A stretch of DNA of 64,000 bases from an uncultured Rickettsiales bacterium (GCA_964558555.1 CAZLEO010000008.1:61-64060); one strand, 5' to 3'. Counted from the stretch's first letter, positions 15,108 to 64,000 are shown. Made by a program: numbers and translations. The notes: generated from the letters alone by a model not told the origin.

Positions 15108-15112
15108 GCCGC

Positions 15113-15748: not shown

Positions 15749-15930
15749 GGCGATCCCTGCCCCACTCTCGAGCGCCTCGCCGCGAGCCTAGCACAGCCTC
15801 GGCGCCCCGCGAATGTACGCGCGAGGATGCCATCGCCCACGTGACGGCCACGACGGGTACAATCTGTGGTTGAGTGCCCGGATTGATGCGGCACCGGGGG
15901 CCGAAGCATCGTCCTGGCAAAGGAGGGAAC

Positions 15931-48354: not shown

Positions 48355-49607
48355 GCGTACTCCTCAGACGTGGCCTCGTCGGCCGGCTCCGATGCCGACG
48401 TCTCCGGTAACAGCGGCAGGAGCTTGATTCCCAGGACGAACAGCGCAGCACCCAGCGCCAGGATCCCGCCCGAGACGAGCCACTCGAAGAGGCTGGGGAA
48501 GTACTCGAAGACCGCGCGCTGCGAGTGATAGGCCTCGGCCAGGCCCTCCATCATGGGCTGGGTCAGGGGCGGCACCACGAGGTTCAGCCGCACCGACAGG
48601 AAGGTCACGGCCACCAGGCCGCCCGCGAGGGCCACGGCGCCGGGCTTTCGCGGCAGCCAGACCAGCAGCGCCACCGGGACGACGACGCCCAGCGCCAGGT
48701 GGAAGATCCAGAAGTTCCACCAGTACGGGCCGAACAGCAGGTGATGGAAGATCTCGGATTCGTGGCTGATGCCCTGCCACAGGGGGGTGGAGAACTCGGC
48801 CCACTCCAGCAGGCTGTCGGCCAGCACCAGCACCAGGACCAGCCGGCCGAGCATGACCAGGGTCTCGCGGAACCGGGCACCCCGGTCGGGCCACACGATG
48901 TAGTAGATCGCCGCCAGCCCGCCGCAACCCGAGGCCAGGGCGCCGACCAGGAAGATGATCGGGAACAGGGGCTGGTGCCAGTACATCCGCGCGCCGATGG
49001 TGGCGAACAGCGCTCCCACGCCGCCGTGGAAGGCGATGGCGAGGGGGACGCCGATCATGCCCAGGCGGTGGAGCCAGCGTTCGGCAAAGGGCTCGGGGAT
49101 GCGCGTGACCTGACGGGCCATGAAGCCCGTCAGCCCCCTCTTGTCACGCCAGGGCACCAGCCGGGGGACCAGGGCCAGGAGGTTCTCGACCAGGATCACG
49201 CCGAAGTAGGTGGAGTACAGGAAGATCATCCACGCCATCATCGAGCGGAAGTTGGCGTGGAGCATGACCTGGATGGAGCGGTTCATGTGGCCCAGGTCCA
49301 TGGCGATGGACAGCAGCGCCATGACCAGGGTGACCGCCGCGGTGAACAGGGCCAGCGGCGCCAGGGGCGCCAGCTTCTCCACGCGTCCGACGTAGACCAC
49401 GGACGAGAGGATGAACGAGCCCGCGGACAGGCCGATGAAGTAGATGTAGAAGGCGACCCACAGGCCCCAGGGGATGTAGTTGTTGTAGTCGGCGAGCTGG
49501 TGGCCGGTGCTCAGCCTCAACCAGACCCCCCAGACCCCGGTGACGGCGAGGACCGCCCAGAGCAGGAAGAAGACGATCTTGGCGAGCCGGATCATGGTGC
49601 TCTCCAT
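48351..49607 (-). CDS. NrfD/PsrC-family polytopic membrane anchor subunit (quinol-interacting).
   Basis: ~10 TM helices with the NrfD family pattern. An alternative start at 49595 (MIRLAK) is preceded by GGAGAG. Confidence 0.75.
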   Translation of the reverse strand: MESTMIRLAKIVFFLLWAVLAVTGVWGVWLRLSTGHQLADYNNYIPWGLWVAFYIYFIGLSAGSFILSSVVYVGRVEKLAPLAPLALFTAAVTLVMALLSIAMDLGHMNRSIQVMLHANFRSMMAWMIFLYSTYFGVILVENLLALVPRLVPWRDKRGLTGFMARQVTRIPEPFAERWLHRLGMIGVPLAIAFHGGVGALFATIGARMYWHQPLFPIIFLVGALASGCGGLAAIYYIVWPDRGARFRETLVMLGRLVLVLVLADSLLEWAEFSTPLWQGISHESEIFHHLLFGPYWWNFWIFHLALGVVVPVALLVWLPRKPGAVALAGGLVAVTFLSVRLNLVVPPLTQPMMEGLAEAYHSQRAVFEYFPSLFEWLVSGGILALGAALFVLGIKLLPLLPETSASEPADEATSEEYA

Positions 49608-51827
49608 CTACAGGCGGTCACACGAGCCGCGCTTGCTGGCCAGCAGCTCGGCGAGGGTCCGCCGCGGTTCGGGGTCGGCCGGGTGGACCGTGACGGCTCC
49701 GGATTCGCCGCGCAGCGAACCCACCTCGGCCCCGAACGTCCGCCGCGGATCGGGCTGGACCGCGGCTCCGTCGATGGTCATGCGTCCATCGAACCCCTCG
49801 GTGTGCCCGTACCCCACGGCGGCGGCGACCACACCGGGGCGGACGGCCTCGGTCTCGACCACGTTGATCTCCCGGTGCGCGCGATCCGCCTCCAGCTCGA
49901 CGCGGTGCCCCCGTCGGACCCCGACCTCGGCGAACGTGCTCGGGTGGACCCAGGCCTCGTTCTCGGCCCTCAGGGACGGCGTGGCCCAGTACTGGGCCGT
50001 GGAGTCCACGAAGCCGCCGAAGCTCTCGCGGTAGGTCACCAGCGCCACCCCCTCGATGGGATCCCCGGGGGATCGGACCGCGCTGGGACGGAACGCTTCG
50101 GGTTTGGGCGGCGTGACAGGGCTGCGGCGGGCTTCGAGCCAGCCCCGGTGCTGGAGCCTGGCCGGGTTCGGGGTCGCGGCGATGGCCGCTTCCAGGACCG
50201 CGTGACTGTCCAGCGTCTCACCGGCGAGCGCGGCGAGGGTCTCGAGCAGGCCCTCGAGCCCACGGCTCCAGGGCGCCTCCAGCCCGGCCTCGCTCATCAC
50301 CGAGCCGACCGTCGGCTGGACCAGCGAGATGCCGTCCCAGCGCTCGACGAGGCCGAACCGCTCGTGCTCGGTCACGTCCGGGACGATCCAGTCGGCCAGG
50401 GCGGCCACGGGGTTCATGACCGTCGTGACGACCACGAGGTTGCGCACGCGGGCGGGGTCGGCCAGGGCCTCGAGCAGCTCGGCGTGGTGGGGGCCGTCGG
50501 TGATCCCTCCGTCCCCCACGACGATCAGGGTCTCGAGGGTCTCCCTGGCGGCCAGGCGTTGTTGCAGCGCGAGGTCGGCACGCTCCCCGAGGGGAACGGG
50601 CGACAGCGCCGGCTCCATGGCCCCACCGACGCCCGTGGCCCCGGACAGGACCGCCAGCCGCAGGATGGCCTCGCAGACCTCGGCGCCGTCGGGGCGCTCC
50701 CCCACGCCGCCGCCCACCCGCACGGTCAGACCATCACCCATCTCCGCGAGCCGGTCGGCGGTGCGCCGGACGACCATCTCACCCAGCCCCGACCGCGGCT
50801 CTAGGTCCTTCCACGGCCGCGCGGCGATCTGGTCGAGCCACTCGTCGGGCGGCTCGACGACACCGTCGTCCACCCAGGCCCTGAGCAGCATCCACGCCAG
50901 GGCCATGTCGCCGCCTGGGCGCACGGGCAGCCAGACGTCGGCCATCCCGGCGACCTCGGACAGCCGCGGATCGACCACGACCAGGGCGCCCGTCCCGTGG
51001 CGCTCACGCAGCCGGAGCAGCTCCCGCGAGTCCCCGATGGGATCCACACCGGACGCGATCGCGTCGGCCCCCCAGATCAACGCCCCCCGCGCGCGCTCGA
51101 GGCGCGGCTGCAGCGTCCAGCCGGGCTGTCCCATCATGGCGTCGCTGGCCGCGTTCACCCACGGGTTGGGCGTACCCAGGAGGACCTCGGCCCCCTCCAG
51201 CGTCTGCTGGAAGGCCTCCAGGACCGGGCGCCGGTCCAGCTGGCGCGGATCCACCGCGACGACGGTCCCGGATGGAGCGGTATCGGCGATCAGGTTTGCC
51301 GCTGCCGCGGCGGCGTCGCCGGGCTGGAGGGTCTGCCAGGCCCCCTCGCCGCGCTCGCCGAGCCTGGAGAGCGGCCGCACGATGCGGAAGGGGTCGTGGG
51401 TGTTCTGCAGCCGCGCCTGGCCGCGGGCGCAGCAGGCTCCTCGCAGGGTCGCGGCGTCGGCGGCCGTGACCGGGAGGGGGCCGCCGTGGACCCTCGGGGA
51501 CCAAGGGTTGCCGTCGATCTTGGCCAGCACCCCACCTTCGGTGGCCACCCGCACGGGGCACGCGCCGTGGCACCCCAGACAGGTGGACAGGACGATGGAG
51601 CCGGGATCATCGAGGGGGTACTCGGCGCGGAAGATCGTGTCCGCGTCGGCAAAGTCGGGACGGCCGGGGCCGATGGCCAGCCCCGCGCGGGAGGCGGCCA
51701 GGGTTCCCAGCGCGCACCCGCCCAGCAGGGCGGTGAGACGACAGAACTGGCGGCGGTCCACGCCCTTTCGGGTGTCCCGGTCGGATCGGACCTCCGGATC
51801 AGCTCCTGTAGTAGACCGTCGGCTCAT
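49608..51827 (-). CDS. Molybdopterin (Mo-bisPGD) oxidoreductase catalytic subunit, Psr/Phs/Ttr-like, Tat-exported.
   Basis: Twin-arginine signal DRRQFCRLTALLGGCALG. N-terminal [4Fe-4S] motif CLGCHGACP. ~740 aa. Confidence 0.8.
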   Translation of the reverse strand: MSRRSTTGADPEVRSDRDTRKGVDRRQFCRLTALLGGCALGTLAASRAGLAIGPGRPDFADADTIFRAEYPLDDPGSIVLSTCLGCHGACPVRVATEGGVLAKIDGNPWSPRVHGGPLPVTAADAATLRGACCARGQARLQNTHDPFRIVRPLSRLGERGEGAWQTLQPGDAAAAAANLIADTAPSGTVVAVDPRQLDRRPVLEAFQQTLEGAEVLLGTPNPWVNAASDAMMGQPGWTLQPRLERARGALIWGADAIASGVDPIGDSRELLRLRERHGTGALVVVDPRLSEVAGMADVWLPVRPGGDMALAWMLLRAWVDDGVVEPPDEWLDQIAARPWKDLEPRSGLGEMVVRRTADRLAEMGDGLTVRVGGGVGERPDGAEVCEAILRLAVLSGATGVGGAMEPALSPVPLGERADLALQQRLAARETLETLIVVGDGGITDGPHHAELLEALADPARVRNLVVVTTVMNPVAALADWIVPDVTEHERFGLVERWDGISLVQPTVGSVMSEAGLEAPWSRGLEGLLETLAALAGETLDSHAVLEAAIAATPNPARLQHRGWLEARRSPVTPPKPEAFRPSAVRSPGDPIEGVALVTYRESFGGFVDSTAQYWATPSLRAENEAWVHPSTFAEVGVRRGHRVELEADRAHREINVVETEAVRPGVVAAAVGYGHTEGFDGRMTIDGAAVQPDPRRTFGAEVGSLRGESGAVTVHPADPEPRRTLAELLASKRGSCDRL

Positions 51828-52500
51828 TGCCGAGCTCCTCCTTGAGCCTGTGGCCGCCGTGGTGGGAGATGCTCTCCTGGACCAGGCTGTACGGGTCGTT
51901 GAGATCTCCGAAGACCAGGGCACCCGTGGGACAGGTGAGCACGCAGGCGGGCAGCGAACCGCGGGCGAGCCGGTGCATGCAGTGGTGGCACTTGCGGACG
52001 TTGCCCACGGGGCTCTCGTGGTGGTGGCGCGTCCACGGCCGGTCGTAGTCGGGCGACGGCCGCTGCTCGTAGGCCACCTCGCCGTGGCAGCCCTCGCCGT
52101 ACCGATCCCCCACGTCGAACGTGCGCGCCGAATAGGGGCACGCGGTCATGCAGTACCGGCAGCCGATGCACTTCATGTAGTCCATCACCACCGTCCCGTC
52201 CGGGGTCGAATAGGTGGCGGCGACGGGGCACACCAGCACACACGCGGGCGTGGCGCAGTGCATGCAGGGTTTGGGGCGGTAGGACCGCCGCGTGTGGGGG
52301 AACTTCCCGTGCAGCTCCTCGAGCACCATCATGTAGGTGATCGCCGGGGGCAGGTTGTTCTCGGCCTCGCACGCGACCTGGCAGGCGCGGCACCCGGTGC
52401 AGGCGTGCATGTCGATGAACATGCCCCACTGACGCCGGCCGTCGCGCCGCTGGAGGGCACGGGTCAGCTCCTCGGCCTGCCTGGCCTTGGCGTCGCTCAT
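51799..52500 (-). CDS. 4Fe-4S ferredoxin-type iron-sulfur subunit (PsrB/NrfC-like).
   Basis: Four Cys clusters (CTGCRACQVAC, CMHCATPACVLVCP, CIGCRYCMTACP, CHHCMHRL...CPTGA). GGGAGG Shine-Dalgarno sequence. Confidence 0.85.
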   Translation of the reverse strand: MSDAKARQAEELTRALQRRDGRRQWGMFIDMHACTGCRACQVACEAENNLPPAITYMMVLEELHGKFPHTRRSYRPKPCMHCATPACVLVCPVAATYSTPDGTVVMDYMKCIGCRYCMTACPYSARTFDVGDRYGEGCHGEVAYEQRPSPDYDRPWTRHHHESPVGNVRKCHHCMHRLARGSLPACVLTCPTGALVFGDLNDPYSLVQESISHHGGHRLKEELGNEPTVYYRS

Positions 52501-53072
52501 GGGGGGGCCTCCCGTTCGGGTTGCGAAGGGGGCCCTCGGTGGACCCGGTCGTGCATCGCGGTGTGGACGCGGACGCTGCGGTCGTGGAACGCCTCCACGT
52601 GGCAGTTGCGGCAGTGGAGGCCCTCGAAGGGCCGCTCCATCATCCGGTCGTGGTGGCAGGCCTCGCACCGCTCGGTGATGTCGATGTCGTGGGAGCCGTC
52701 GGCGTGACACCGGACGCAGTCGGTGCTGCCACGCCCGTGGGTCAGGTGGCACTCGAGGCAGCTCTGCTCCGCCACCACCGGGTTCTCCATCGACTCCATC
52801 CAGGATGGGACGTCGGCGCCGACCCGCAGCGTGGTGTACGACAGGTACTCCTTGATCGGGAGTACGTGGCAGACGTGGCAGCTGGCCGAGAAGGTTTCCG
52901 AGTGAGGAGGCGTGTCCAGGGCCTCGGCGTCGGAGGTGCCGTGGTGGCACGACACGCACAGGGCCTCGCGCGTATCGATCTGCTCGAAGCGGGCGCCACC
53001 GGCGAAGCCGCCGAGGAACAGCCCGATCACGGCAGGGGCGAGGGTGCGGGGTTGGATCAAGTTCCTCACCAC
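52497..53072 (-). CDS. Hexaheme c-type cytochrome (NrfB/ActA-like).
   Basis: Six CxxCH motifs (CVSCH, CHVCH, CLECH, CVRCH, CEACH, CRNCH) and an N-terminal TM/signal. Confidence 0.8.
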   Translation of the reverse strand: MVRNLIQPRTLAPAVIGLFLGGFAGGARFEQIDTREALCVSCHHGTSDAEALDTPPHSETFSASCHVCHVLPIKEYLSYTTLRVGADVPSWMESMENPVVAEQSCLECHLTHGRGSTDCVRCHADGSHDIDITERCEACHHDRMMERPFEGLHCRNCHVEAFHDRSVRVHTAMHDRVHRGPPSQPEREAPP

Positions 53073-53182
53073 ATGCCTCCGTGGGGGAGCACCACGGCGA
53101 GGAATCGCACCAGGAACATCAGCCAGTAGCCCAGCACCGCGCCGACCACGAGCATCCCTGTGCCGATGATCCAGCGCATCAT
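53066..53182 (-). CDS. Candidate 38-aa single-TM protein (MMRWIIGTGMLVVGAVLGYWLMFLVRFLAVVLPHGGMW).
   Basis: GAGGA Shine-Dalgarno sequence. Overlaps both flanking genes by 4-7 nt in the operon. Confidence 0.35.
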   Translation of the reverse strand: MMRWIIGTGMLVVGAVLGYWLMFLVRFLAVVLPHGGMW

Positions 53183-55743
53183 GGTGAATCCTCGCCCTGG
53201 TCCAGGGTCAGCCGGTACTCGTCCTCGTGGAAGAAGGTGAGCTGCGGCCTGCCCTCGAGGCCGTGGCACACCTCACAGAAGCGGACGATCTCGTCGGGAT
53301 CACGCAGGAAGCTGTTGAGCTCCGAGCCGTCCACCTCTCCGGGCCGGTCCTCGGCGTCGTGGCGCCAGCGGTGCGGGTCGTGGCAGGTCATGCACGTGAT
53401 CTCCCCCACCTGGCGGTTCTCGGTCTGCTCGCCGTCGGGGCCGTAGTAGGGCACGGGGCCGTCGTAGCGGAACGGCAGCCCGCCCACGGTGAGCATCAGC
53501 CGCTCGGGGTGGGTGTAGTGGTCCACTGGGGTGGCGTCGGTGGAGCCGTCGTGGCAGGCCAGGCAGCGACCGTTGGCGGGGTTGATCTCCCCGGCGCCGT
53601 CGTCGGCGAGCCCTGTCATCAGGTAGTCCAGATCCGATCCGTGGGCCGCGTGGCACGAGAGACAGGGCCGCCGCTCGCCGTCGACGGCCACGACGCTGGC
53701 GTCGTGATCCGTACCCAGCACCGCACCCTTGTCGGCGTGGCACTCGAGGCACAGGGGGCCGACGCCGTCGTCGCTCCTGAGCACGAACGCGGTACCCGCG
53801 TGGGCATCGTGGCAGGTGCTGCAGCCGAGCCGACCATCGTAGTCGGGCAGGTCGCCGTGCTCGCCGGGCTCGAGGTCCGTGCCCAGCGGATGGGAGGCTG
53901 CCAGGGAGATCTGCGGGTCCTCGCTGCCGTCGGTGTGGCAGTCCAGGCACTGATCGGGTCCCACGCCCTGGCGCCGCTGGCCGTCCCCGAAGCCCCCGGG
54001 CCGCGTGTGCATGCCGTGGCATTCCTGGCAGGCCGGCGCTCCGTGGCCGCCGGCCCGGATGGCGCGCGACTCGTCCACGTGGCAGGCGCGACAGGCGTCG
54101 GTGCCCGCCTGGTTCATCCGCAACAACGTGGCGCTGGTGGACTGGTGGGGATCGTGGCACGACAGGCAGGTCAGGTGGCCGTCGGGCGCGAAGGCCCCGC
54201 CCATGGACTCGACCCGGTTGAGGGTGATCCGGTCGACCTCCACGTCCACGGCGTGGCGGGAGAACCCGCTGGCGTGGTCCGCGTGGCACGACGTACACAG
54301 GTCGCCGTTGGACGCCGCCGAGATCAGCAGGGGGTCGGCGTGGGCGCCGTGGGGCGGATGGCAGCTCATGCACACCAGCCGCTCGCCCTCGAACCGCGCG
54401 CCCTCCCCGATCAGCTCCTCCGCGGCCGTGCCGGCCGGCGGCGCCAGCCCGATGGGGTGGCTCTTGCGGCGGTGCGAGGTCTCGGTGTCCAGGTAGTCGT
54501 CGTGGCACTCGACGCACAGATCGTTGCCCGGGAAGCGTGAGACCTGCTCCCCTTCGCGCGGCAATCCGAAGTCCACCACCTCACCCAGCGCGGCGGGCCC
54601 GGCGGAGGCGCCCATCTCCCTGTGCACGAAGTGGCAGGTGTGACAGGTCATGTCGCCGGACTCGGACGTGCGGAACCGCTCCGGGATCTCGTCGTCCTCC
54701 TCGAGCACGAGGGGATGGTTGGTGGCCCCTGGGTCCCAGTTGCCGGAAGCGAGCACCCTCGTGCCGTCGTGACACTGACGGCAAACGAAGGACGGGTCTG
54801 CGTCGCGGACCGTGGCGCTGCTGGCGAGCTCCCCTTCGGGCGGGAACCGCCCGTCCCGCCACGCGCTCCCCTGCGCGTCCAGGCGGTACGCCGAGGCGGA
54901 GCCCGCGTCCGTGACGTACAGGCTGCCCTCGTGTGCGGCGATGCCGATGGGGAAGGCGAACAGCAGCGGCTCGGCGGGCCCGGAGATCAGCTGCCGGAAC
55001 GTGCCGTCGCGCTCGAGGATCTGCACCGCGCCCTTGTGGCTGTCCACCACGGCCATCGCGCCGTCGGCGAGGACGGCCACGTCCTTGGGCTTGTAGAAGC
55101 GGCCCTCCCCCGGTCCCCACTCCCCGAAGGCCCCACGCAGGGTCCCGTCGTCGGCGAGATGGAGCACGCGGCCCGCCAGCGTCTCGGTGACGAGGACCCC
55201 GCCGTCGCCGTCCGAGACGAGGCCACGGGGACCTTCCAGCGGCGTACCGTCGATCGCGTCGATGTCCGCCTCCACCGCACCGGCGGAGTCCAGGACCAGG
55301 ATGCGATTCTGGGGCGTGAGGGCGACCCACAGCCTGCCGTCCGCGGCGACACAGACGTCGATGGGCTCGGTGTGCTCGTCGAGGATGATCTCGTCCTGTT
55401 GCCGGCCGTCGGCGGGGGACAGGAGCACGAGCCGATGGTTGCCTGCGTCGGCGATCCAGATCCCCTCGTCTGCCACGCCGATCCCCGATGGGTGATCGAG
55501 GTCCTGGGACACGCGCCAGCGGATCTTCCCCATGGGTCCGACCGCCATCACGACGTCCCTGGCGATGTCGGCGATCACGACGGTCCCGTCGGCGAGGACG
55601 TCCACGGCCGCGGGCTCGGCCAGGCCCGCCTGCCAGGTGGAGCCGATGACGAAGCCCGTGGTCGTACCCGGGCCGGCGAGCACCCCCCCGGCGAGGGCGC
55701 ACAGGAGCCCCAGGCCGGCCGCGACGAGGAGTAGGCGCTTCAT
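53179..55743 (-). CDS. Fusion protein: N-terminal NHL-repeat beta-propeller followed by a 15-heme c-type cytochrome domain.
   Basis: Signal MKRLLLVAAGLGLLCALAGG. NHL-like repeats. 15 CxxCH motifs. Confidence 0.8.
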   Translation of the reverse strand: MKRLLLVAAGLGLLCALAGGVLAGPGTTTGFVIGSTWQAGLAEPAAVDVLADGTVVIADIARDVVMAVGPMGKIRWRVSQDLDHPSGIGVADEGIWIADAGNHRLVLLSPADGRQQDEIILDEHTEPIDVCVAADGRLWVALTPQNRILVLDSAGAVEADIDAIDGTPLEGPRGLVSDGDGGVLVTETLAGRVLHLADDGTLRGAFGEWGPGEGRFYKPKDVAVLADGAMAVVDSHKGAVQILERDGTFRQLISGPAEPLLFAFPIGIAAHEGSLYVTDAGSASAYRLDAQGSAWRDGRFPPEGELASSATVRDADPSFVCRQCHDGTRVLASGNWDPGATNHPLVLEEDDEIPERFRTSESGDMTCHTCHFVHREMGASAGPAALGEVVDFGLPREGEQVSRFPGNDLCVECHDDYLDTETSHRRKSHPIGLAPPAGTAAEELIGEGARFEGERLVCMSCHPPHGAHADPLLISAASNGDLCTSCHADHASGFSRHAVDVEVDRITLNRVESMGGAFAPDGHLTCLSCHDPHQSTSATLLRMNQAGTDACRACHVDESRAIRAGGHGAPACQECHGMHTRPGGFGDGQRRQGVGPDQCLDCHTDGSEDPQISLAASHPLGTDLEPGEHGDLPDYDGRLGCSTCHDAHAGTAFVLRSDDGVGPLCLECHADKGAVLGTDHDASVVAVDGERRPCLSCHAAHGSDLDYLMTGLADDGAGEINPANGRCLACHDGSTDATPVDHYTHPERLMLTVGGLPFRYDGPVPYYGPDGEQTENRQVGEITCMTCHDPHRWRHDAEDRPGEVDGSELNSFLRDPDEIVRFCEVCHGLEGRPQLTFFHEDEYRLTLDQGEDSP

Positions 55744-56732
55744 GGTTGCTGTCCCTGCAGTTCGGCGTCCACCTCTGCGGCGGGGTGGCATGCCTTGCAC
55801 AGCTGGCCGTCACTCAGGGGCAGACGCAGGTAGTCGGGCTCGGTCGTGTGCAGGACCGGGGACTCCCCCTCCTCCGCGTCCACGGCCACGCCCAGGACCT
55901 CCTCGGCCCAGTCCGGCGGCATCACGAGGCCGCCCAGGGCCTGGGCGCGCCCGCTCTCCTGTTCGATGCTGCCGGCGGGGTGGGGATCGTGGCAGGTACC
56001 GCAGTACACCTTGCCCTGATCCAGCGGGAGGCCTGCCGCCTCGGCGCGGGTGATCCCGTCTGCGTCCAGCTCGACGAGGTGCTCGGCGGAGCTGGTGTGG
56101 ATGCCCTCCTCCCGGTGGCATCCCTCGCACATCTGCGGTGCGGCGACCTTGAGGTCGTCCATGTCGGCCTCGGTGACCGTGGCGTCCTGGTGACAGAACT
56201 CGCAGATGGACGTGGCCTCCGGACGCTCCTTCATGTCCTCGTGGGGGTCGTACTTGCCCAGCTGCTCCACCGTGTGGCACCGGGCGCAGAACTCGCCGAT
56301 GGTGCCGTAGGGGCCGCCACGGAGGAAGTAGGGGTTGTCGGGGGCCATGGGAGCCCCGTCGCAGGCCGGCTCGTCGTGACACGTCAGGCAGGCGACCCGG
56401 CCATCGTCCAGAGGCCATGTCTCCGGGAGTTCGGCGTGCTCGCCCGTCCCGTCGTCCTCCAGTACGGGCTCCATGCCGACCTCGTGGGGGCCCTCCTCGT
56501 GGCAGTACAGGCACGCCGCGTCGGAAGAACCCCGGGCGAACGTCGTCCCGGCGGATGCGGGGACACCCTCGCCGTCGGAGTGACAGCCCGTGCAGGACGA
56601 GGGCACGCCGTGGGGCGACTCCTCGTCGGCGCCCGGGGCGGCGCCGAGCAGGGCGGCGAGGGCCAGCGCCGAGACGCCCAACGCGACGTTCCGGTCGGCA
56701 GGGCGACCCCTCGGTGGTTGGACTGGCGTCAC
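55740..56732 (-). CDS. Octaheme c-type cytochrome.
   Basis: Eight CxxCH motifs. Signal peptide ALGVSALALAALLGAAPGA. The GTG start overlaps the upstream stop as GTGA. Confidence 0.75.
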   Translation of the reverse strand: MTPVQPPRGRPADRNVALGVSALALAALLGAAPGADEESPHGVPSSCTGCHSDGEGVPASAGTTFARGSSDAACLYCHEEGPHEVGMEPVLEDDGTGEHAELPETWPLDDGRVACLTCHDEPACDGAPMAPDNPYFLRGGPYGTIGEFCARCHTVEQLGKYDPHEDMKERPEATSICEFCHQDATVTEADMDDLKVAAPQMCEGCHREEGIHTSSAEHLVELDADGITRAEAAGLPLDQGKVYCGTCHDPHPAGSIEQESGRAQALGGLVMPPDWAEEVLGVAVDAEEGESPVLHTTEPDYLRLPLSDGQLCKACHPAAEVDAELQGQQP

Positions 56733-57034
56733 GGCAGCACTCCGTTGGAGCCGTGGCAGTCGGAGCAGCTGTCGTAGCCCTCCGTCCGCACCAGGGTCTC
56801 CAGTTCCAGGTAGTCCACGCCCGTCGTGCACTCGCGCTGGTGGACCACCGCGAGGACGTGGCAGGCCGCGCAGTCGTCCCGGCCCCAGCCATCGGCGTGC
56901 TCCGAAGGGGTCACGACGAGCCCCTCCTCCGACTGGCCGATGGGGACCTCCAGGTCCTCGCACGGCGTCAGAGAGGCGCACGACAGCCCGAGGACGGCGA
57001 GCCCCAGGGAGACCAGGACGTGGCGCGCTACCAT
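56729..57034 (-). CDS. Diheme c-type cytochrome lipoprotein (101 aa).
   Basis: Lipobox LGLAVLGLSC. CAACH and CSDCH. GGAAGG Shine-Dalgarno sequence. Confidence 0.7.
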   Translation of the reverse strand: MVARHVLVSLGLAVLGLSCASLTPCEDLEVPIGQSEEGLVVTPSEHADGWGRDDCAACHVLAVVHQRECTTGVDYLELETLVRTEGYDSCSDCHGSNGVLP

Positions 57035-57633
57035 GGCGACCTTCCGTTGCTGTGACAGCGCGTACACGAGTCGCCGGAGTGGCACGTGACGCAGGACTGG
57101 GGATCGAAGCGGGCCTCGATGCCGTGGAGCGCGCCCCACCCCGGCGGGTGATTCGAGCGGGTCAGGGCGCCGCGGTTCTCGTGGCAGGTGAGGCAGCGGC
57201 CGGTGTCGTGGCATTCGTGACAGCCAGGGCGGATCATCCTGACCTCGCTGCCGTGGAACCTGGCCCAGCCCGGCCCGTGGGAGTCGGGGGAGAACCCCTC
57301 GCCGTGACAGATCTGGCACCCCTCGGGACCCACGGCGGCGCGGGTGTCCGTGGCCTTGTGACAGTAGTGGCAGCTGGCAGGGGGCGGCGACAGGAACGCG
57401 TCGTCCAGGACCTCGGCGTCCCCGGGTTCCTCCAGGCGCGTCCCGACCAGGTGACAGGCGACGCACGCGACGTTCTGCTCGGTGAAGGTCTCGACGTGCT
57501 CCTCGTGCAGGAACTCGTCGAAGATCAGCTGCACCTCCTCGGACGTGAGGGACTCCTCGGCCCCACCCCCGACCATCGTGGCCGAGGCGCCCAGCAGGAT
57601 CACCACCAGCGGCGTCGCGACGATGGCCCTCAC
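57028..57633 (-). CDS. Heptaheme c-type cytochrome.
   Basis: Seven CxxCH motifs. GTG start after AAGGGAGGGG. Signal peptide. Confidence 0.75.
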   Translation of the reverse strand: MRAIVATPLVVILLGASATMVGGGAEESLTSEEVQLIFDEFLHEEHVETFTEQNVACVACHLVGTRLEEPGDAEVLDDAFLSPPPASCHYCHKATDTRAAVGPEGCQICHGEGFSPDSHGPGWARFHGSEVRMIRPGCHECHDTGRCLTCHENRGALTRSNHPPGWGALHGIEARFDPQSCVTCHSGDSCTRCHSNGRSPW

Positions 57634-59009
57634 AGCGCCCCCCTCCCTTGGCCCACGCGGGCCTGCAAGGCCACGCCCGCACGCCACCAGGGGGACAGCA
57701 GACGGTCCGTGCCCACGGCGGTGCGGAAGACGATGCCCAGTTGACCCCACTTGGGCCGCACGGGAAGGACCAGGCTCCCCTGGAACCGGGCCTCCCCGAC
57801 GGTGGCCTGGGTCCCATCCAGGCCCTGGAAGCGATAGATCCCGGCCTCACCCCAGAGGTGGACCGGGCCGACCTGGTGGCGCATCCCCACGCCGCCGCCG
57901 GCGTACCACGATGCGCCCACGGACGTGCCGGTGCCGTAGAGGCCCAGTCCGGACCAGTCGAAGGCCAGCTTTGCGGTGCCGCCGACCGCGACTCCCGTCT
58001 CCACACCCGGGGGGATCTCGGAGTCCTCGGCCACGACCTCGTAGCCCTCGGTCTGCTGCCCGATGGTGGGGCCGCCCTCGACACGGAGGCTCAGGTCGTT
58101 GGCGGGCCGGAGCTCGAACGAGACCTCGGCCACGCCGTAGTCCTCGGGGCGGAGGGTCTCCACGATCGAGGCGGCGGACCAGGGCACCGTGATGGGGGGC
58201 AGGCCGTAGTAGCGCCCGCCCAGCCTCAGCCTCGCGCGCGTCCCCAGCGGGAGCGAGGACTGGACGCGCGCCGCGAATCCAACCCCCCCGGAGTCCTCGA
58301 CCCCCTCGGTCTCGCCGTCGATGCCGAGCTCGCCCAGCGCCAGCAGGGACACCCCCCGGCTGCTGCGCAGGGTCGTGCTCAGGTGGATGCGGTGGGTCAG
58401 GTTCACCGGCGTGCGGCGAATGTCGTACCCGGCGGCGAGGCCGAACGCCCCCGGTGAGATGCGGAACTGCGCGCCGCCGCCCACGTCTCCGCCGATGTCG
58501 ATCGCCTCCGGGTGGCCCACGCGGCCGCCCCACAGCGACACCCCCACCGGATCGTCCATGCCGAGGTTCAGCAGGACGCCGTCCACGCGGGTCAGGCCGA
58601 GGGTCCCGGCGTGGACGTACCGGCCGGCCGTGATCGACACCTTGGGGCCGTTGTACTGCACGGCCAGGCGCTGGATGCTCGCCTCGTCCCAGGCGTACAC
58701 GTCGGTGGTGGCCAGGGGGATCAGCAGCTGGCCGTCGGCGATCACCCGGAAACGCGGTGAGAAGCCTGCGGTGAGCGACAGCCCATGGCGCATCCGGGCC
58801 CAGGTGTCGCCGTTGGACTCCGGCAGGACCTCGATGGACGAATGGCCCTCGGCCTGGCTCTGGCTCGCAAATGTACCCGCGCTGGCCAAAGAGGCAAAAG
58901 CCAGCAGGGGGACCAGCACCAGGCCGAAGGCCCACCGTCCGGAGCGAGTGGGCGCGCTCCGGAGCAGAGTTCGCCGTGGTTGCAAGAGGCGCACGGCCCT
59001 ACTCCTCAT
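57630..59009 (-). CDS. Porin-like outer-membrane beta-barrel protein (MtrB/PioB/OmbB-like context).
   Basis: Signal peptide. Glycine/aromatic-rich alternating beta-strand pattern throughout. No cofactor motifs. Flanked on both sides by cytochromes. Confidence 0.6.
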   Translation of the reverse strand: MRSRAVRLLQPRRTLLRSAPTRSGRWAFGLVLVPLLAFASLASAGTFASQSQAEGHSSIEVLPESNGDTWARMRHGLSLTAGFSPRFRVIADGQLLIPLATTDVYAWDEASIQRLAVQYNGPKVSITAGRYVHAGTLGLTRVDGVLLNLGMDDPVGVSLWGGRVGHPEAIDIGGDVGGGAQFRISPGAFGLAAGYDIRRTPVNLTHRIHLSTTLRSSRGVSLLALGELGIDGETEGVEDSGGVGFAARVQSSLPLGTRARLRLGGRYYGLPPITVPWSAASIVETLRPEDYGVAEVSFELRPANDLSLRVEGGPTIGQQTEGYEVVAEDSEIPPGVETGVAVGGTAKLAFDWSGLGLYGTGTSVGASWYAGGGVGMRHQVGPVHLWGEAGIYRFQGLDGTQATVGEARFQGSLVLPVRPKWGQLGIVFRTAVGTDRLLSPWWRAGVALQARVGQGRGAL

Positions 59010-59277
59010 CCTCGAGGTGGACTGGCGGGTAGGCGTGGCACAGGGAGCAGTGGTAGACCGACGTACCCTCGATCCGTCCGTCCTCGTCCTCGGCGTGGCA
59101 CTCGAAGCAGGCGGTGTCGTCCTCCTCGACGTCCTCCATGTGCAGGCGCGAGTACCCTTCGGGATGGGGGAATCCTCCCGATCCGTACCCCTCGGTGACG
59201 TCCACGGGCACGCCGCAGCTCCCCACGGCCAGCCCGAGCGCGCACGCCAGCAGGGTCCTGGAAATCCAGCGAGTCAT
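58999..59277 (-). CDS. Diheme c-type cytochrome lipoprotein.
   Basis: MTRWISRTLLACALGLAVGSC lipobox. CFECH and CSLCH. GGAG Shine-Dalgarno sequence. ATGA overlap with the upstream gene. Confidence 0.7.
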   Translation of the reverse strand: MTRWISRTLLACALGLAVGSCGVPVDVTEGYGSGGFPHPEGYSRLHMEDVEEDDTACFECHAEDEDGRIEGTSVYHCSLCHAYPPVHLEDEE

Positions 59278-59837
59278 CGATGCGCTCCACGCGGTGGCGG
59301 GGTGCGCCGGACCAGCAACCACAGGATCAGCAGATACGACGGCCAGGGCGCCGAGACATCGCCGGCGAGCGAGTACACGCAGCTGGCGGGAGCTTCGTCC
59401 TCGCCGGCGGAGTCGTCGTCGTCGGAGATGTCCGCGCACTCGTAGACCGGCAGCTCTTCGAGGACACTGAGATCATCCCCCGGGTTGCTGGTCTCCTCGA
59501 ACGCGGCGTCCTGGCCGTAGGTCCATTCGCCGCAGGGATCGCCGAGCTCCTCGCCGTTGGTCTGACCGTCGTCGTCGGAGTCGAGTGCGTACACCGCGGG
59601 CCAGATGGGTTTCGGGTTGACGTAGTCGTCGTAGGTCAGCGCGACGTCGACCCCGAACCAGGTGAGGTTCAGGGCCCTGTCGATGTCGATGTGACAGGCG
59701 CCGCAGTCGTGCGTGGCGCCGTTGGGGATCTCGGTGCTGAACAGGTTCCGCGCCTCGGCCGGGGCGGCCGGGAGCAGCGCGAGGAGGCACACCACCGCCA
59801 TGGCACGGGGTGCGGCACATGGCGGTCTGGTGCTCAT
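59274..59837 (-). CDS. Monoheme c-type cytochrome with a C-terminal TM anchor.
   Basis: Signal MAVVCLLALLPAAPAEA. Single CGACH. C-terminal hydrophobic helix. Acidic region. Confidence 0.6.
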   Translation of the reverse strand: MSTRPPCAAPRAMAVVCLLALLPAAPAEARNLFSTEIPNGATHDCGACHIDIDRALNLTWFGVDVALTYDDYVNPKPIWPAVYALDSDDDGQTNGEELGDPCGEWTYGQDAAFEETSNPGDDLSVLEELPVYECADISDDDDSAGEDEAPASCVYSLAGDVSAPWPSYLLILWLLVRRTPPPRGAHR

Positions 59838-60496
59838 GTGCCGCTGGCCCCGTGCCGCGCACCCTCTTCCTCGAGCAAGACCTCGGTGAGGCGCGCCAGC
59901 TCGGCGTAGAAGGGTCGCCGTGCCGCTTGCCGCACCTTCCGACAGAATGGGGGAACCCAGCGAGAGAGATCCTGTCGGTAGAGGTAGCGTTCGGAGTTGA
60001 GGATGCGCTCGGCTCGTTCGTCGTCTCCGTCCTGTAGTGCCCCGGCCTGGCTCTCGAGGAGCTTGGCGTACAGCTCCAGCTCGTGGGCGACGTGGTCCGG
60101 GATTCCGTCGTAGCTCTGTCCGCCGAACTCCAGGCCGTGGTCCTTGGCGAACCGACGGATGCGGCTCGTGGTATTGCCCCAGAGGTTGCCCTGCCTGGTG
60201 TCGTCCGGGTGGTGGACCGATCCGTAGGGCGGCACGTGCTTTCCCGGCCCCAGGAAGACCCTGGAGTACTCCCGGCGGATGGCCGTGAGCTCGTCCGCGT
60301 CCGCCAGGGCCTCCTGCTCGAGGTCGAAGCCCTCGCGCTGCAGCAGCCCCAGCGTTCCCGAGCTCGCCAGCTTGTCGCCCAGCTCCTCGGTGACCTCGCT
60401 GCGGTACAGCGTCGCCATGAGTCGGTACAGGGCCGCCCGCTCGATGAGAGCCAGGGGTTGTGTCGTCGTGCTGTCGGACATGTCACAGCTCTCCAT
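59834..60496 (-). CDS. TorD/DmsD-family redox-enzyme maturation chaperone (REMP).
   Basis: TorD-like helical protein (REYSRVFLGP...PPYGSVHH motif region). Confidence 0.7.
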   Translation of the reverse strand: MESCDMSDSTTTQPLALIERAALYRLMATLYRSEVTEELGDKLASSGTLGLLQREGFDLEQEALADADELTAIRREYSRVFLGPGKHVPPYGSVHHPDDTRQGNLWGNTTSRIRRFAKDHGLEFGGQSYDGIPDHVAHELELYAKLLESQAGALQDGDDERAERILNSERYLYRQDLSRWVPPFCRKVRQAARRPFYAELARLTEVLLEEEGARHGASGT

Positions 60497-60552: not shown

Positions 60553-63429
60553 TCAGGCGGGCGAAACGCTGACCACCGTGTCCATGAACCGCAGCCCGCC
60601 GCCGATGGGGTCACCAGCGTTGGGCATGATCCAGTTGGGCCGGAAGCCCTTGCTGTTCCACCAGATCTCGTCCTTGTCCACGTCGTTGGCGCCGTGGTCG
60701 GTGTAGTCCGCGTCGTCGCCCAGCGGGTGGGTCTCCTCACCCGCCGTGGCGTAGCGTCCGTAGGCCCAGTGATCGAAGTGGTGGGACACGGCGATCACCT
60801 TGGGGTGGATACCCTGGACGACCTTGGCGGTGACCGTGATGGAGGACCGGGCGGTCCCTTCGGTCACGATCATGTCCTTGTCGTTGATCAGCTCCGCGGT
60901 GCGCGTGATGGTGATCTCGTCGCCGTCGGCGATCCCCAGGGACGCGGCCGTGGACGCGTTGATCCAGGCACCCTCGGAGTGATCGAGCTCGCTGAGGTAC
61001 TTGCAGTTCTGGCTGCGCGAGTGGATCTGCGTGGCCAGCTTGAACGTGGTCAGGATGAGCTCGTCGGCGCCCATCTCGTCGTGCTCGGGGATGCGCATCC
61101 ACACGGGCAGACCCGGGTAGTGGCCCATCTCCATGATCACGGACTGGAGCTCGAAGAAGCCCGACTTGTTGATCTTGTCGGGCGCGAACCCCTCGTACAC
61201 CGTCCCCGAGTCGTCGATCACCTGGCCGACGTAGTGCTTGTACGACTTGGAGGTGTTGCGGTAGCCGTCGTTGAACTCGGCCTTGGTGCACTCCCAGACG
61301 ATGCCCTCCTCGTCCATGAAGACGTAGTCGTCCTCGTCCTCGTCGTCGACGGTCTCGGGATCGGTCAGGTCCACGTCCACGACGTTGTCGTACTCGCCGT
61401 ACTTGGGTTCGGCGGACGGGTCGTGCCACGCCCCTTCGGCGGTCATGAAATCGAACCCGTTGGCGTATCCGGCGCTCGTGCCGGCGTTGTCCACGTCCTC
61501 GGTGTCGTTGCACGCGGCCTCGACGAAGTTCTCCATGCTGCCCACGGCGGCCACGTCCTCGAGGGGATCGTCGCCACCTTCGCTGAGGCGGCCGGCCAGG
61601 TCGATGAGCACGTCCTGCATGTTGCGGACCTCGCCCAGCGGCGAGATCACCGGCTGGCGGATGTAGAACTCGGGGACCATGTCGTACGAGACCATGTCCT
61701 CCCAGTCCCAGCGCTCGAGGTACGTGGCGTCCGGCAGGATCAGGTCGGCGTACATGGCGGCCTCGGTGTACGCGACGTCGGACACCACGATGTACGGGAT
61801 CAGGCTCTCGTCCTTGAGGACGTCGATGTTGTCCTGCATGTCGCCGTTGGCGTAGGCCGGGGTGTAGCAGTACACCAGGTACACCATCGGGCGATCCTCG
61901 GGCGCGGCCGCGCGGATCTCCTTGAGCACCTGGTGACTGGCGTGATGCGACGGGGCCACGTAGGCGTCGTCGTTCTGGACCGACAGCCCGGTGGTGTCGT
62001 TGCTGGGCTTGGGGAAGGTCGAGGAGTACGACCAGCTGGCGCCCACGCCGTGGACGCGGCCGCCTTCGCGGTCGATGTTCCCACAGAGCCCCTCGAGCAT
62101 CTGCACGGCGTTCTCGGTCACGGTGCCGTTGAAGTGCATCACGGCGCCGCGGTAGCTGATGATGGTGCTGCCGGGGCTGCCGGCGGCGTAGGCCTCGGCG
62201 ACCATCTCGATGTCCGCCGCGGACACACCGCTGAGGCCCTCGGCCCACGCGGGCGTGAAGCCACCTGCGGGCTGGTCGTCGGGATCCCAGTAGTCGATCA
62301 TGTCGGGATCGGCGTCGCGGCAGGCCGAGATGTAGTCGGCCGGGTTCTCGAGCAGGTCACGCAGGCGCTCGAACTTGCTGTCGAAGCCCAGCGGATCGAC
62401 GTTCGACCAGTCGTTGATGAAGTCGATGCCCGCCTGGGGCGCCAGGTCGTTGGTGACGATGTGGTAGGTCATCGCCAGGACGACCGCCAGATCGGTGCCG
62501 GGCTTGATCGGCAGCCACTTGGTGGACTTGGCCGCGGTCTCGGAGAGCCGGACGTCGAAGGTGTAGGTCTCCGCGCCCTCGTGGATAGCCTCGCTGAGTC
62601 GCGTGGCGAACGGGATGTGGCTGGTGTGCGCGGCCAGCGGATTGGAGCCGAAGTTGACGATGACGCTGGAGTTGATCACGTCGTTGACGTCGTAGTGCTT
62701 GCCCCAGACCAGCTCCTGGCTCGTCCACTTGTTGGACTCGCAGATGGCGGTGTGCCCCGCATAGGACTTGGAGCCGAACGCGGGCAGGAAGTAGGACTTG
62801 GCCAGCTTGGACGACGAGCCCTTCATGCGTCCGTAATGGAACATGAAGTACTTGGGATCGGCGGCGCGGGCCTCGGCCATCTTCGCGGTCAGCTCGGTGA
62901 GGGCGTCGTCCCAGGAGATGCGCTCCCACTGGTGGTCGCCGCGAGCGGTCCCGGCGACGCGCCGCATGGGGAACAGCAGGCGATCGGGGTCGTAGACCTG
63001 ACCGATGCCACCCTGCCCCTTGGCGCAGATCTTCCCTCGGGTCTTCTGCGCCCTGGGGTTGCCCTCGATCTTGGCCAGGCGGCCGTCCTCGACGTAGCAG
63101 ATGATCCCGTCGCGGCAGACGCACTGCCAGCAAGCGCTGGGGATGGCGGTGCGCTCCTCGCCGGTGACGGGCGAGTAGTCTGTCATGGTGCCGTCGACCG
63201 TATCGCCGACGATCACGTCGTCGAACTGGACCGTGTCGTCCGGGCACTCCTCGGTCACGACATCGTCGTCATCGACGTCATCGGCGCATGCCGCGATCGC
63301 GGCGCCCACGCCGAACACCAGCGCGCTCTTGGCGCCCAGAGAGGTCAGCAACTCCCGACGCGACGACGCGCGCTCGGTCTCGGCACCCTCGGCGGTCAGC
63401 GCATCATTCTTCTTTGATTCGTCCTTCAT
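60553..63429 (-). CDS. Second molybdopterin oxidoreductase catalytic subunit (958 aa; TtrA/PsrA-like), Tat-exported.
   Basis: Twin-arginine signal SRRELLTSLGAKSALVFGVGAAIAACA. Cys motif CWQCVCRDGIIC. Mo-bisPGD domain architecture. AAGGAG Shine-Dalgarno sequence. Confidence 0.8.
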   Translation of the reverse strand: MKDESKKNDALTAEGAETERASSRRELLTSLGAKSALVFGVGAAIAACADDVDDDDVVTEECPDDTVQFDDVIVGDTVDGTMTDYSPVTGEERTAIPSACWQCVCRDGIICYVEDGRLAKIEGNPRAQKTRGKICAKGQGGIGQVYDPDRLLFPMRRVAGTARGDHQWERISWDDALTELTAKMAEARAADPKYFMFHYGRMKGSSSKLAKSYFLPAFGSKSYAGHTAICESNKWTSQELVWGKHYDVNDVINSSVIVNFGSNPLAAHTSHIPFATRLSEAIHEGAETYTFDVRLSETAAKSTKWLPIKPGTDLAVVLAMTYHIVTNDLAPQAGIDFINDWSNVDPLGFDSKFERLRDLLENPADYISACRDADPDMIDYWDPDDQPAGGFTPAWAEGLSGVSAADIEMVAEAYAAGSPGSTIISYRGAVMHFNGTVTENAVQMLEGLCGNIDREGGRVHGVGASWSYSSTFPKPSNDTTGLSVQNDDAYVAPSHHASHQVLKEIRAAAPEDRPMVYLVYCYTPAYANGDMQDNIDVLKDESLIPYIVVSDVAYTEAAMYADLILPDATYLERWDWEDMVSYDMVPEFYIRQPVISPLGEVRNMQDVLIDLAGRLSEGGDDPLEDVAAVGSMENFVEAACNDTEDVDNAGTSAGYANGFDFMTAEGAWHDPSAEPKYGEYDNVVDVDLTDPETVDDEDEDDYVFMDEEGIVWECTKAEFNDGYRNTSKSYKHYVGQVIDDSGTVYEGFAPDKINKSGFFELQSVIMEMGHYPGLPVWMRIPEHDEMGADELILTTFKLATQIHSRSQNCKYLSELDHSEGAWINASTAASLGIADGDEITITRTAELINDKDMIVTEGTARSSITVTAKVVQGIHPKVIAVSHHFDHWAYGRYATAGEETHPLGDDADYTDHGANDVDKDEIWWNSKGFRPNWIMPNAGDPIGGGLRFMDTVVSVSPA

Positions 63430-63442
63430 GATGCTTCTCCTT

Positions 63443-64000
63443 TCAGATGCTGGGGACGTCGAGCTGGCGACCTGCGTCGCCGCGGATGTCGTAGCCGGTG
63501 TCGTAGACGTCGGAGTCGAGGTCGATGTAGTACAGCGCCGGGTCGGTGCCCGAGCCGCCGAGCAACACGGTGACCCGGTCGCCCGCGGCCTCGATCTGCT
63601 GGCTGATCTCGCTGTTGGGATCATTGAGGTTGCCCGTGACGCGCGCGTTGGCCGGACAGGTGTTCACGCACGAGGGCACGATCCCGTTGGCCAGGCGGTG
63701 GATGCAGCTGTTGCACTTGTCCACGGGGTGGGGATCGCTGATGGACAGTCCGAACTCGGCGGGGTCCCCGCCGGCGGTCTTGGAGTAGTCGAGGAAGCGG
63801 GCGCCGTAGGGGCAGTCCGCGACGCAGTACCCGCAGCCGACGCAGCGGTCCTGGTCCACGTGGACCAGGCCGTCGGGGCGCTGGTAGGTGGCGCGAGCCC
63901 AGAACTGGGCCGTGCCCCCGCCGGGGAACTCGAGGTTGGCCATGATCGGCGTGGTCGGGCAGCGCTCGAGGCAGACCGGCTCACGGCAGTGGTTGCACCG
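63443..64000 (-). CDS. 4Fe-4S iron-sulfur subunit partner of the second molybdoenzyme. Partial: the N-terminus lies beyond the window edge.
   Basis: CVGCGYCVADCP and CNSCIHRL...CPANA clusters. Translating upstream of the internal Met gives CNHCREPVCLERCP, so the gene continues past 64000. Confidence 0.75.
   Translation of the reverse strand, partial: RCNHCREPVCLERCPTTPIMANLEFPGGGTAQFWARATYQRPDGLVHVDQDRCVGCGYCVADCPYGARFLDYSKTAGGDPAEFGLSISDPHPVDKCNSCIHRLANGIVPSCVNTCPANARVTGNLNDPNSEISQQIEAAGDRVTVLLGGSGTDPALYYIDLDSDVYDTGYDIRGDAGRQLDVPSI

Follow-up and report, generated by a model that had tools for sequence, protein, structure and literature searches.

A predicted 22-strand outer-membrane barrel is the probable sheath of a porin-cytochrome electron conduit encoded together with a molybdoenzyme

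A 64,000-nucleotide stretch of DNA from an uncultured Rickettsiales bacterium (GCA_964558555.1 CAZLEO010000008.1:61-64060; hereafter the window) encodes, among multiheme cytochromes and next to a molybdoenzyme module, a predicted outer-membrane beta-barrel that probably serves as the insulating sheath of a porin-cytochrome electron conduit spanning the outer membrane; we put the probability of this reading at about 0.7. The set of a soluble multiheme wire, a suitably sized barrel and cytochromes of the lipoprotein type matches the porin-cytochrome paradigm, and this match favors the sheath model. Such conduits serve the electron exchange of diderm bacteria with minerals, electrodes and partner cells. 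To our knowledge, a structure is available for the Mtr complex alone, and few barrel families are known. The features of the window are listed in Table 1.

The barrel gene had been singled out in a preliminary description of the window, made from the sequence, as coding for a 459-residue signal-peptide protein with a Gly/aromatic alternating pattern and no cofactor motifs, and both the open reading frame (ORF) and the Sec signal were found again here. The G+C content at third codon positions (GC3) of the ORF is 0.91 in a surrounding window of about 70% GC, indicating that it is a genuine gene. Its N-terminus displays the organization of a Sec signal, with an Arg-rich n-region, the h-region WAFGLVLVPLLAFASLASA, and a cleavage site of Gly and small residues. 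The mature chain of 415 residues contains 68 Gly and 32 Phe, Trp or Tyr, with no Cys and no CXXCH. Since Cys is absent, no heme or iron-sulfur (FeS) motif can be present, in agreement with the preliminary description. The same text had allowed that the protein might prove to be periplasmic or non-barrel, or to carry an enzymatic domain. Comparison with Pfam and NCBIfam returned no family at E <= 0.1 and no enzymatic domain, and the modeling gave a confident 22-strand barrel whose significant fold matches are all outer-membrane barrels.

Using an alignment of 63 sequences, AlphaFold2 predicted 22 strands with a mean local confidence (pLDDT) of 86.4 and a global template-modeling score (pTM) of 0.79; with 12 homologues, the model again comprised 22 strands, with nearly the same boundaries (pLDDT 70.9). 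The outer-membrane barrels matched in the PDB share 6-15% identity with the window protein, with Foldseek TM-scores of at most 0.52. Among them, 22-strand TonB-dependent receptor barrels align over 330-358 residues at about 4 Å, and the usher translocation pores FimD and PapC as well as Occ-type substrate porins are found among the best matches. The faces of the predicted strands alternate between hydrophobic and polar, Gly-rich, with many Arg at lumen-facing positions. The mean hydropathy gap between the two faces of the 22 strands is 2.77, against 1.33 +/- 0.21 (maximum 2.00) in 500 composition-preserving shuffles, so that the alternation noted in the preliminary description holds. If the N-terminus is assumed to be periplasmic, the putative periplasmic turns in the strand list of the model span 2-6 residues and every loop of at least 9 residues (9-22) lies on the opposite side. 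These short periplasmic turns and long opposite loops correspond to the usual topology of outer-membrane proteins. No Plug, TonB-receptor or extra domain was detected in the barrel with Pfam and NCBIfam or in the model, and about 6 residues precede strand 1. By hand calculation with the standard barrel-geometry relation (n = 22, shear about 24), the C-alpha diameter is about 40 Å, which places TonB-receptor barrels in the same size class. These barrels house a plug of about 150 residues. A plug-less, short-loop barrel of 22 strands would be an unusually large open pore unless filled by a partner.

Two identities suggested by the fold were rejected. A TonB-dependent transporter fits the barrel size but not the missing Plug and TonB_dep_Rec domains and the short segment before strand 1, and an usher would carry a plug and periplasmic domains that are absent from the protein. 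As a separate observation, the longest loop, residues 269-290 (58143-58208, minus strand), contains a short helix and is the most conserved non-strand segment (LPPxxxPWSxxSxxExxRPxDYG); it could serve as a latch, a cytochrome contact or a constriction loop.

Homologues of the barrel are few. A word-indexed search retrieved 12 relatives, none bearing a name, and phmmer, run exhaustively over 1.84 billion cluster representatives, yielded 71 relatives at E <= 1e-3, mostly of 400-450 amino acids and conserved over the full length. A further word-indexed search with the family profile gained only one protein. The profile matched no PDB sequence, even at E = 10, and Pfam, applied to all 63 family members (the barrel and 62 relatives), produced only scattered single chance matches and no relevant family. 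The MtrB/PioB family model matched none of the 63 members at E <= 1. Membership of the MtrB/PioB/DmsF family was rejected accordingly: besides the lack of a model match, the barrel has 22 and not 26 strands, and its neighbor is a 7-heme cytochrome and not an MtrA/DmsE decaheme. At the level of sequence, we conclude that the barrel family is small, has no prior annotation and is unseen by Pfam and NCBIfam models, the OmbB and Ext barrels having been compared with it through their published descriptions.

Thirteen loci offered a readable context for the barrel gene, with barrel identity falling to about 25-27%: the window, L001-L004, L007-L013 and the P0085 contig. L005 is a duplicate of L004, and L006 is of insufficient length. 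In these loci, a multiheme cytochrome gene directly adjoins the barrel gene wherever a flank is present on the contig, which bears out the porin-cytochrome gene logic proposed at the outset. All 12 loci with a downstream flank share the same succession, the barrel gene being followed by a cytochrome gene (about 190-215 codons) and then by a small gene (71-108 codons); in the thirteenth, L011, the contig stops at the barrel gene and a lipoprotein cytochrome lies directly upstream. The cytochrome contains 7 CXXCH in 11 of the 11 sequences read, while the small gene product carries a lipobox Cys and 2 CXXCH in 8 of 8, and the order is retained down to about 25-32% barrel identity. The stop codon of the barrel gene overlaps the start of the heptaheme gene by 4 nucleotides in the window and in the loci in which both genes were called, except L010 (1 nucleotide). 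The loci fall into two subfamilies, between which the barrels are about 32% and the heptaheme cytochromes about 45% identical. Pairwise identities of the two proteins correlate (r = 0.80 over 55 pairs), a weak piece of evidence because they share a phylogeny. Further downstream, the usual order on the longer contigs comprises a cytochrome of about 290-360 amino acids (8 CXXCH where read), a multiheme protein of 800-870 (15 CXXCH where read; NHL matches in the window, L012 and L013), a hydrophobic peptide of 37-40, and a gene product of about 190-275 (6 CXXCH where read). L009 deviates after the diheme gene, with 4 hemes and then unrelated genes, and L013 contains additional small genes.

The heptaheme cytochrome encoded next to the barrel has the properties expected of a wire. 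All homologues possess a Sec signal and no lipobox. Seven CXXCH and seven further His are invariant in 11 sequences, enough for bis-His ligation of all hemes, and the chain spends only about 25 residues per heme, which argues for an electron wire and not an enzyme. Just after the heptaheme gene comes that of the second diheme lipoprotein, which shows the highest conservation among the small components of the family (51% mean pairwise identity), with the motif EHPxGWG...CxxCH...CxxCHGxNG. Its gene is concealed in a spurious 451-residue ORF (56729-58084). The preliminary description had the barrel gene between a diheme lipoprotein gene and the heptaheme and octaheme genes, all of which were found, the first upstream and the others downstream of the barrel. 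It had overlooked this second diheme gene between the last two, as well as the Mo enzyme, chaperone and inner-membrane module of the unit. The lipobox of the upstream diheme lipoprotein is conserved in four loci.

The genes ahead of the barrel differ between the two subfamilies. In the more distant one, the barrel gene is preceded by a gene for a 7-8-heme lipoprotein in which a diheme unit (FPHPxGY...CXXCH...CXXCH) recurs about four times, itself preceded by one for an 8-heme lipoprotein with CarboxypepD_reg (Ig-like) domains. In the window subfamily, only one such unit is left of the former, in the shape of the upstream diheme lipoprotein (E 2e-8), and the latter gives way to an FeS subunit, a molybdopterin (Mo) subunit, a chaperone and a monoheme protein. 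L001-L004, and in part L008, share the order of barrel, cytochrome, Mo subunit with a twin-arginine (Tat) signal, FeS subunit and chaperone. The distal module, as read from these gene orders, is therefore exchangeable within the family, consisting either of large multiheme lipoproteins or of a molybdoenzyme.

For the Mo subunit, the best NCBIfam models are PhsA, DmsA/YnfE and ArrA, all scoring far under their cut-offs: 252 bits against 694 for the PhsA equivalog, 202 against 778 for the dmsA_ynfE model, and 168 against 1600 for the ArrA equivalog NF041714. On this last score, the subunit does not qualify as an ArrA equivalog. The closest solved structures are PsrA of Thermus (2vpw, 1e-42) and ArrA of Shewanella (6cz7, 1e-41). 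A Cys of the subunit aligns with the Cys of the SLC and SSVC motifs of PsrA and ArrA, which we take to be the Mo ligands, and the subunit shares with ArrA the GR, H..C and K positions as well as the HWAYGRYA segment. The Tat motif and lipobox of the subunit are present in 4 of 5 loci (the window and L001-L003). The full-length orthologue of the FeS subunit in L001 (4609-5535) bears a Tat motif and lipobox of its own (RNRREIL...VTIGC|DEE); in both enzyme subunits, a separate Tat motif and lipobox precede runs of Asp or Glu. In classical PsrAB, ArrAB and DmsAB, the FeS subunit is exported by hitch-hiking.

Upstream of the FeS and Mo genes, L001 (390-4360) and L004 (679-4345) encode a HAMP histidine kinase and a sigma-54 response regulator along with a periplasmic binding protein; these sensor genes were read in the orthologous loci, the equivalent region lying past position 64000, where the window stops. 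Among the matches of the L001 binding protein, ArrX (6x6b, E 3e-45) comes ahead of AioX (7e-32) and PtxB (3e-16), and the set of binding protein, kinase and regulator has the AioXSR/ArxXSR/ArrXSR design (PMC5908839). The ArrX-like sensor may point to an arsenic-type or related oxyanion, which is to be taken as a lead only, given the ArrA score and the position of the sensor genes outside the window.

From these elements, the following path can be proposed. The heptaheme cytochrome, presumably co-translated with the barrel and with all its hemes bis-His ligated, would enter the barrel lumen from the periplasm and carry electrons across the outer membrane, and the two small diheme lipoproteins would cap or touch it at the membrane, on a side that we can only infer. 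On the periplasmic side, the octaheme cytochrome and the 15-heme NHL protein would relay electrons to the membrane-anchored hexaheme cytochrome and, in the window subfamily, also to the NrfD module resembling Qrc or alternative complex III (ACIII), and hence to the quinone pool. On the distal side would stand the large lipoprotein multiheme cytochromes in other family members and, in the window subfamily, the Tat-exported, lipid-anchored FeS and Mo enzyme of the Psr/Arr type together with the monoheme protein and its surface-sorting-like tail. Like DmsEFAB in Shewanella, the conduit most likely connects the respiratory chain, across the outer membrane, with the reaction of the molybdoenzyme. 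Both the direction of the electron flow and the substrate are points that we infer.

Other functions of the barrel were weighed against the sheath. FimD and PapC being among the best fold matches, and several lipoprotein neighbors being in need of surface export, the barrel might act transiently, in the manner of an usher or of Slam, as a pore for secretion or assembly that brings the lipoprotein cytochromes, and with them the lipidated Mo and FeS subunits, to the surface. Mtr assembly has itself been described as a stalled excretion of MtrA (PMC7198977), so that secretion and sheath roles are not exclusive. We nevertheless regard a secretion pore as unlikely, since the usher plug, the N- and C-terminal usher domains and the Slam tetratricopeptide-repeat domain are all absent from the mature chain, and since the tightest-coupled and best conserved neighbor is a soluble heptaheme cytochrome and not a lipoprotein. 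The Occ-type porins among the top fold matches and the Arg residues facing the lumen would rather suit a diffusion or specific channel for the substrate of the Mo enzyme, such as an oxyanion or polysulfide, with the cytochromes as mere neighbors. Such a channel is quite improbable: the order barrel-heptaheme-diheme persists at loci whose fetched flanks contain no Mo enzyme, the barrel gene shares stop/start overlaps with cytochrome genes on both sides, and a plug-less barrel with short loops would make an unusually large open pore. It is also very improbable that the barrel merely anchors cytochromes facing the periplasm, without any crossing, next to a periplasmic Mo enzyme of the classical ArrAB/PsrAB kind. 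A Tat motif with a lipobox does place the enzyme outside the cytoplasm while leaving face and membrane unspecified, and a full periplasmic heme path (hexaheme, 15-heme and octaheme proteins) exists without a crossing; however, 22 strands are unnecessary for anchoring lipoproteins, and the large CarboxypepD_reg lipoprotein cytochromes of the other subfamily look like cell-surface proteins. As for a chance ORF or a soluble beta-rich protein, GC-rich DNA does yield many long spurious ORFs, several of them overlapping the barrel locus, but the GC3 of 0.91, the 71 homologues at E <= 1e-3 conserved over their full length, the confident barrel model and an amphipathicity far above that of the shuffles refute this possibility.

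Several points weigh against the sheath model or its extension to the molybdoenzyme. Proteobacterial outer-membrane protein beta-signals typically end in an aromatic residue, and the barrel ends in ...GQGRGAL. All family members come from metagenomes or metagenome-assembled genomes (MAGs) and are known from sequence alone. Closure of the barrel and the size of its lumen are deduced from strand counts by DSSP, from fold matches and from a calculation by hand. In L004, the Mo subunit has no lipobox, and lipid anchoring of the enzyme is thus not universal. Finally, that the host is a diderm is suggested by the lipoproteins, by DegP and by a TonB receptor on the contig of a relative.

The conduit genes belong to a tightly spaced run on the minus strand that reaches from the FeS gene, at the edge of the window, as far as moeA. 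Most junctions between the TorD and MoeA genes are 4-nucleotide overlaps; four others overlap by 7-29 nucleotides and one abuts. Scanning of the 46-64 kb region detected no promoter-like site and a single terminator-like site, located inside the barrel gene, fewer than in shuffles. These scans are compatible with a single long operon and otherwise uninformative. Rfam returned no match over the whole window.

Table 1 Features of the window (c-type heme motifs given as numbers of CXXCH).
Feature	Coordinates	Strand	Description
4Fe-4S subunit	63443-64000	minus	cut by the window end; Fer4_11, TtrB-, DsrO- and ArrB-like
Molybdopterin catalytic subunit	60553-63429	minus	958 amino acids (aa); Tat motif SRRELL, lipobox AAIAAC, poly-Asp; Pfam
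TorD/DmsD-type Tat proofreading chaperone	59834-60496	minus	PF02613 E 7e-21; TorD NF003442 E 3.5e-14
Monoheme Temptin_C-like protein	59274-59837	minus	PF24784 E 3.9e-11; 1 CXXCH
Upstream diheme lipoprotein	58999-59277	minus	92 aa; lipobox LAVGSC|G; 2 CXXCH
Barrel	57630-59009	minus	459 aa; Sec signal of about 44 aa; predicted 22-strand outer-membrane beta-barrel
Heptaheme c-type cytochrome	57028-57633	minus	201 aa; soluble, periplasmic; 7 CXXCH; GTG start, 4-nucleotide overlap with the barrel stop
Second diheme lipoprotein	56729-57034	minus	101 aa, MVARHVLVSLGLAVLGLSC...; 2 CXXCH; between heptaheme and octaheme genes
Octaheme cytochrome	55740-56732	minus	330 aa; Sec signal, no lipobox; 8 CXXCH
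NHL beta-propeller/15-heme fusion	53179-55743	minus	854 aa; 15 CXXCH; NHL, Paired_CXXCH_1
Hydrophobic peptide	53066-53182	minus	38 aa; overlaps the 15-heme and hexaheme genes
Hexaheme cytochrome	52497-53072	minus	6 CXXCH; hydrophobic N-terminal membrane anchor
Qrc/ACIII-like module, FeS protein	51799-52500	minus	Pfam, NCBIfam
Qrc/ACIII-like module, Tat molybdopterin-like subunit	49608-51827	minus	Pfam, NCBIfam
Qrc/ACIII-like module, NrfD membrane subunit	48351-49607	minus	Pfam, NCBIfam
MoeA	47146-48354	minus	Pfam; overlaps the NrfD gene by 4 nucleotides
MoaC-MobB	46149-47264	minus	Pfam; Mo cofactor gene, end of the run
Genes elsewhere in the window, not assigned singly	9507-16682, 22235-23587, 24429-25940, 27371-28435, 37659-38987	minus	
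Genes elsewhere in the window, not assigned singly	32614-35811	plus	

The octaheme gene starts with a GTG that overlaps the preceding stop by 4 nucleotides, its position is conserved across the loci, and its product gives weak matches to MtrC/MtrF domain II/IV and to paired-CXXCH models. The octaheme and the 15-heme proteins are the only ones to give partial matches to the DmsE family, far under the cut-off. At the position of the hydrophobic peptide, a gene of 37-40 codons is found in L004, L008, L012, L013 and the P0085 contig; the 38-residue peptide may be a small membrane subunit partnering the anchored hexaheme cytochrome, which is in turn a candidate for the inner-membrane entry or exit point of electrons. 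A 6-heme gene occupies the hexaheme position in L001-L004 and L008, and a gene of 254-274 codons, with hemes unread, elsewhere. The set formed by the hexaheme, FeS, molybdopterin-like and NrfD genes (48351-53072, minus strand) resembles Qrc or ACIII. Of this module, FeS or Mo-like genes occur in L001-L003, the closer loci, and the module is absent after the hexaheme gene in L004 and the P0085 contig. The monoheme protein displays a DSDxDGQTNGxELGDPCG motif, acidic DDDDS linkers, and a tail composed of a C-terminal Cys, a hydrophobic helix and an Arg-rich end, the tripartite tail being conserved in five loci. This tail resembles sorting signals of the MYXO-CTERM or PEP-CTERM type; no NCBIfam sorting domain matched it.

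Elsewhere, the window contains a 2391-residue ORF, two proteins with the MopE copper-binding motif, a radical SAM enzyme that binds B12, a type III polyketide synthase and a protease of the DegP type, the MopE-type proteins being of the metal-binding-motif class. In L004, too, a B12 radical SAM gene lies downstream of the conduit cluster. The MAGs of L001-L003 are labeled "uncultured Rickettsiales bacterium" at NCBI, and the loci have a GC content of 68-71%. The Rickettsiales label of these related MAGs sits badly with such a composition and is probably wrong.

The porin-cytochrome conduit as a kind is already well known. What is new here is a barrel family unseen by current models (with OmbB and Ext compared by description only), a fixed barrel-heptaheme-diheme core, and a branch capped by an Arr/Psr-like lipoprotein molybdoenzyme. 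The compact syntenic signature of barrel, heptaheme cytochrome, diheme lipoprotein and relay cytochromes can be searched for in other genomes. We tentatively raise a broader possibility, which we consider more doubtful than not: the logic of DmsEFAB would have arisen independently on an unrelated scaffold, with an Arr/Psr-like enzyme, whose two subunits would be exported by Tat and anchored by lipid, at the surface or working across the outer membrane, wired by the barrel and the heptaheme cytochrome to the quinone pool and under ArrX-like control. If so, the system would respire, outside the cell, arsenate or a related sulfur species or oxyanion, As(V) sorbed to minerals being one example, or, in the opposite direction, would oxidize such a compound and pass the electrons to extracellular acceptors. 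Should the enzyme lie outside, it would represent a second, independent origin of extracellular molybdoenzyme respiration, and the ArrX-like sensor suggests a possible link to the mobilization of arsenic from sediments.

Among known systems, the Pcc class is the closest in numbers. Pcc-type porins have 18-22 predicted strands and their periplasmic cytochromes 5-14 hemes (PMC4245776). Clusters of this class (Shi et al. 2014) were delimited by BLAST similarity to OmbB/OmbC or OmaB/OmaC at E < 0.01. The strand count, which the preliminary description had proposed to compare with those of MtrB/PioB and OmbB, is 22, inside this range and unlike the 26 strands of MtrB (PMC7198977), and the barrel-heptaheme pair, with 22 strands and 7 hemes, falls inside both Pcc ranges and fits the class in these numbers. 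As in that class, where the barrel gene always accompanies a periplasmic multiheme gene, a Sec-dependent, lipobox-free heptaheme cytochrome is encoded directly downstream of the barrel in 12 of the 12 loci with a flank. The outer-membrane lipoprotein cytochromes of Pcc clusters likewise have counterparts, namely two dihemes with lipoboxes in the window and 7-8-heme lipoproteins in the other subfamily. In Geobacter, the Pcc and Ext clusters have set the paradigm genetically and biochemically (PMC4245776, PMC6148476), and the barrels ExtB, ExtE and ExtI have 18 or 21 strands (PMC6148476). The Geobacter Pcc system (OmbB-OmaB-OmcB) relies on 5-12-heme lipoproteins, whereas the window encodes two tiny 2-heme lipoproteins in a fixed barrel/7-heme/2-heme order and, unlike Geobacter Pcc, a molybdoenzyme as distal module. 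In the Ext clusters (ExtABCD, ExtEFG, ExtHIJKL), the outer lipoprotein is replaced non-orthologously while the periplasmic part is conserved, and non-cytochrome caps such as FeS proteins have been predicted (PMC6148476). The swap of lipoprotein cytochromes for lipoprotein FeS and Mo subunits matches this pattern. Other sequence-divergent conduits, PCC3 and PCC4, have been described (PMC5566968), and a 2026 peat preprint reports four porin-multiheme cytochrome clusters, one of which may be identical with the barrel family. Our literature search, of incomplete coverage, found no Arr/Psr-like enzyme described within a porin-cytochrome operon, an absence that proves nothing.

MtrCAB, MtoAB and PioAB share the same principle of a beta-barrel sheath, a bis-His multiheme wire and an outside lipoprotein cytochrome. 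In the MtrCAB structure, the barrel sheathes a bis-His decaheme cytochrome, and the likeness of MtrB to FimD was noted (PMC7198977); FimD-type secretion barrels thus resemble both MtrB and the window barrel model. With respect to PsrABC and ArrAB, no dedicated PsrC or ArrC anchor adjoins the Mo enzyme of the window, which sits instead inside an operon of multiheme cytochromes and a barrel. DmsEFAB of Shewanella oneidensis is an Mtr-type conduit capped by an extracellular dimethyl sulfoxide/iodate reductase (PMC9732548). It shares with the window operon a barrel, a periplasmic multiheme cytochrome, a Tat-exported Mo subunit with a bis(pyranopterin guanine dinucleotide) cofactor, an FeS subunit and a TorD/DmsD-type chaperone (PMC9732548). 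The two differ in their wires, DmsE having 10 hemes (PMC9732548) and the window cytochrome 7, with no NCBIfam match for the latter, the DmsE-family model included. They also differ in their enzymes: DmsEFAB uses DmsA, whereas the Mo subunit of the window is of the Cys type, Psr/Arr-like, with lipoboxes on both enzyme subunits, and the DmsEFAB enzyme is extracellular, whereas in the window only export signals (Tat motif, lipobox and acidic stretch) are visible. Since the Mo enzyme, the chaperone and the inner-membrane module are encoded in the same unit, we conclude that the closest functional analogue of the window system is DmsEFAB rather than plain MtrCAB.

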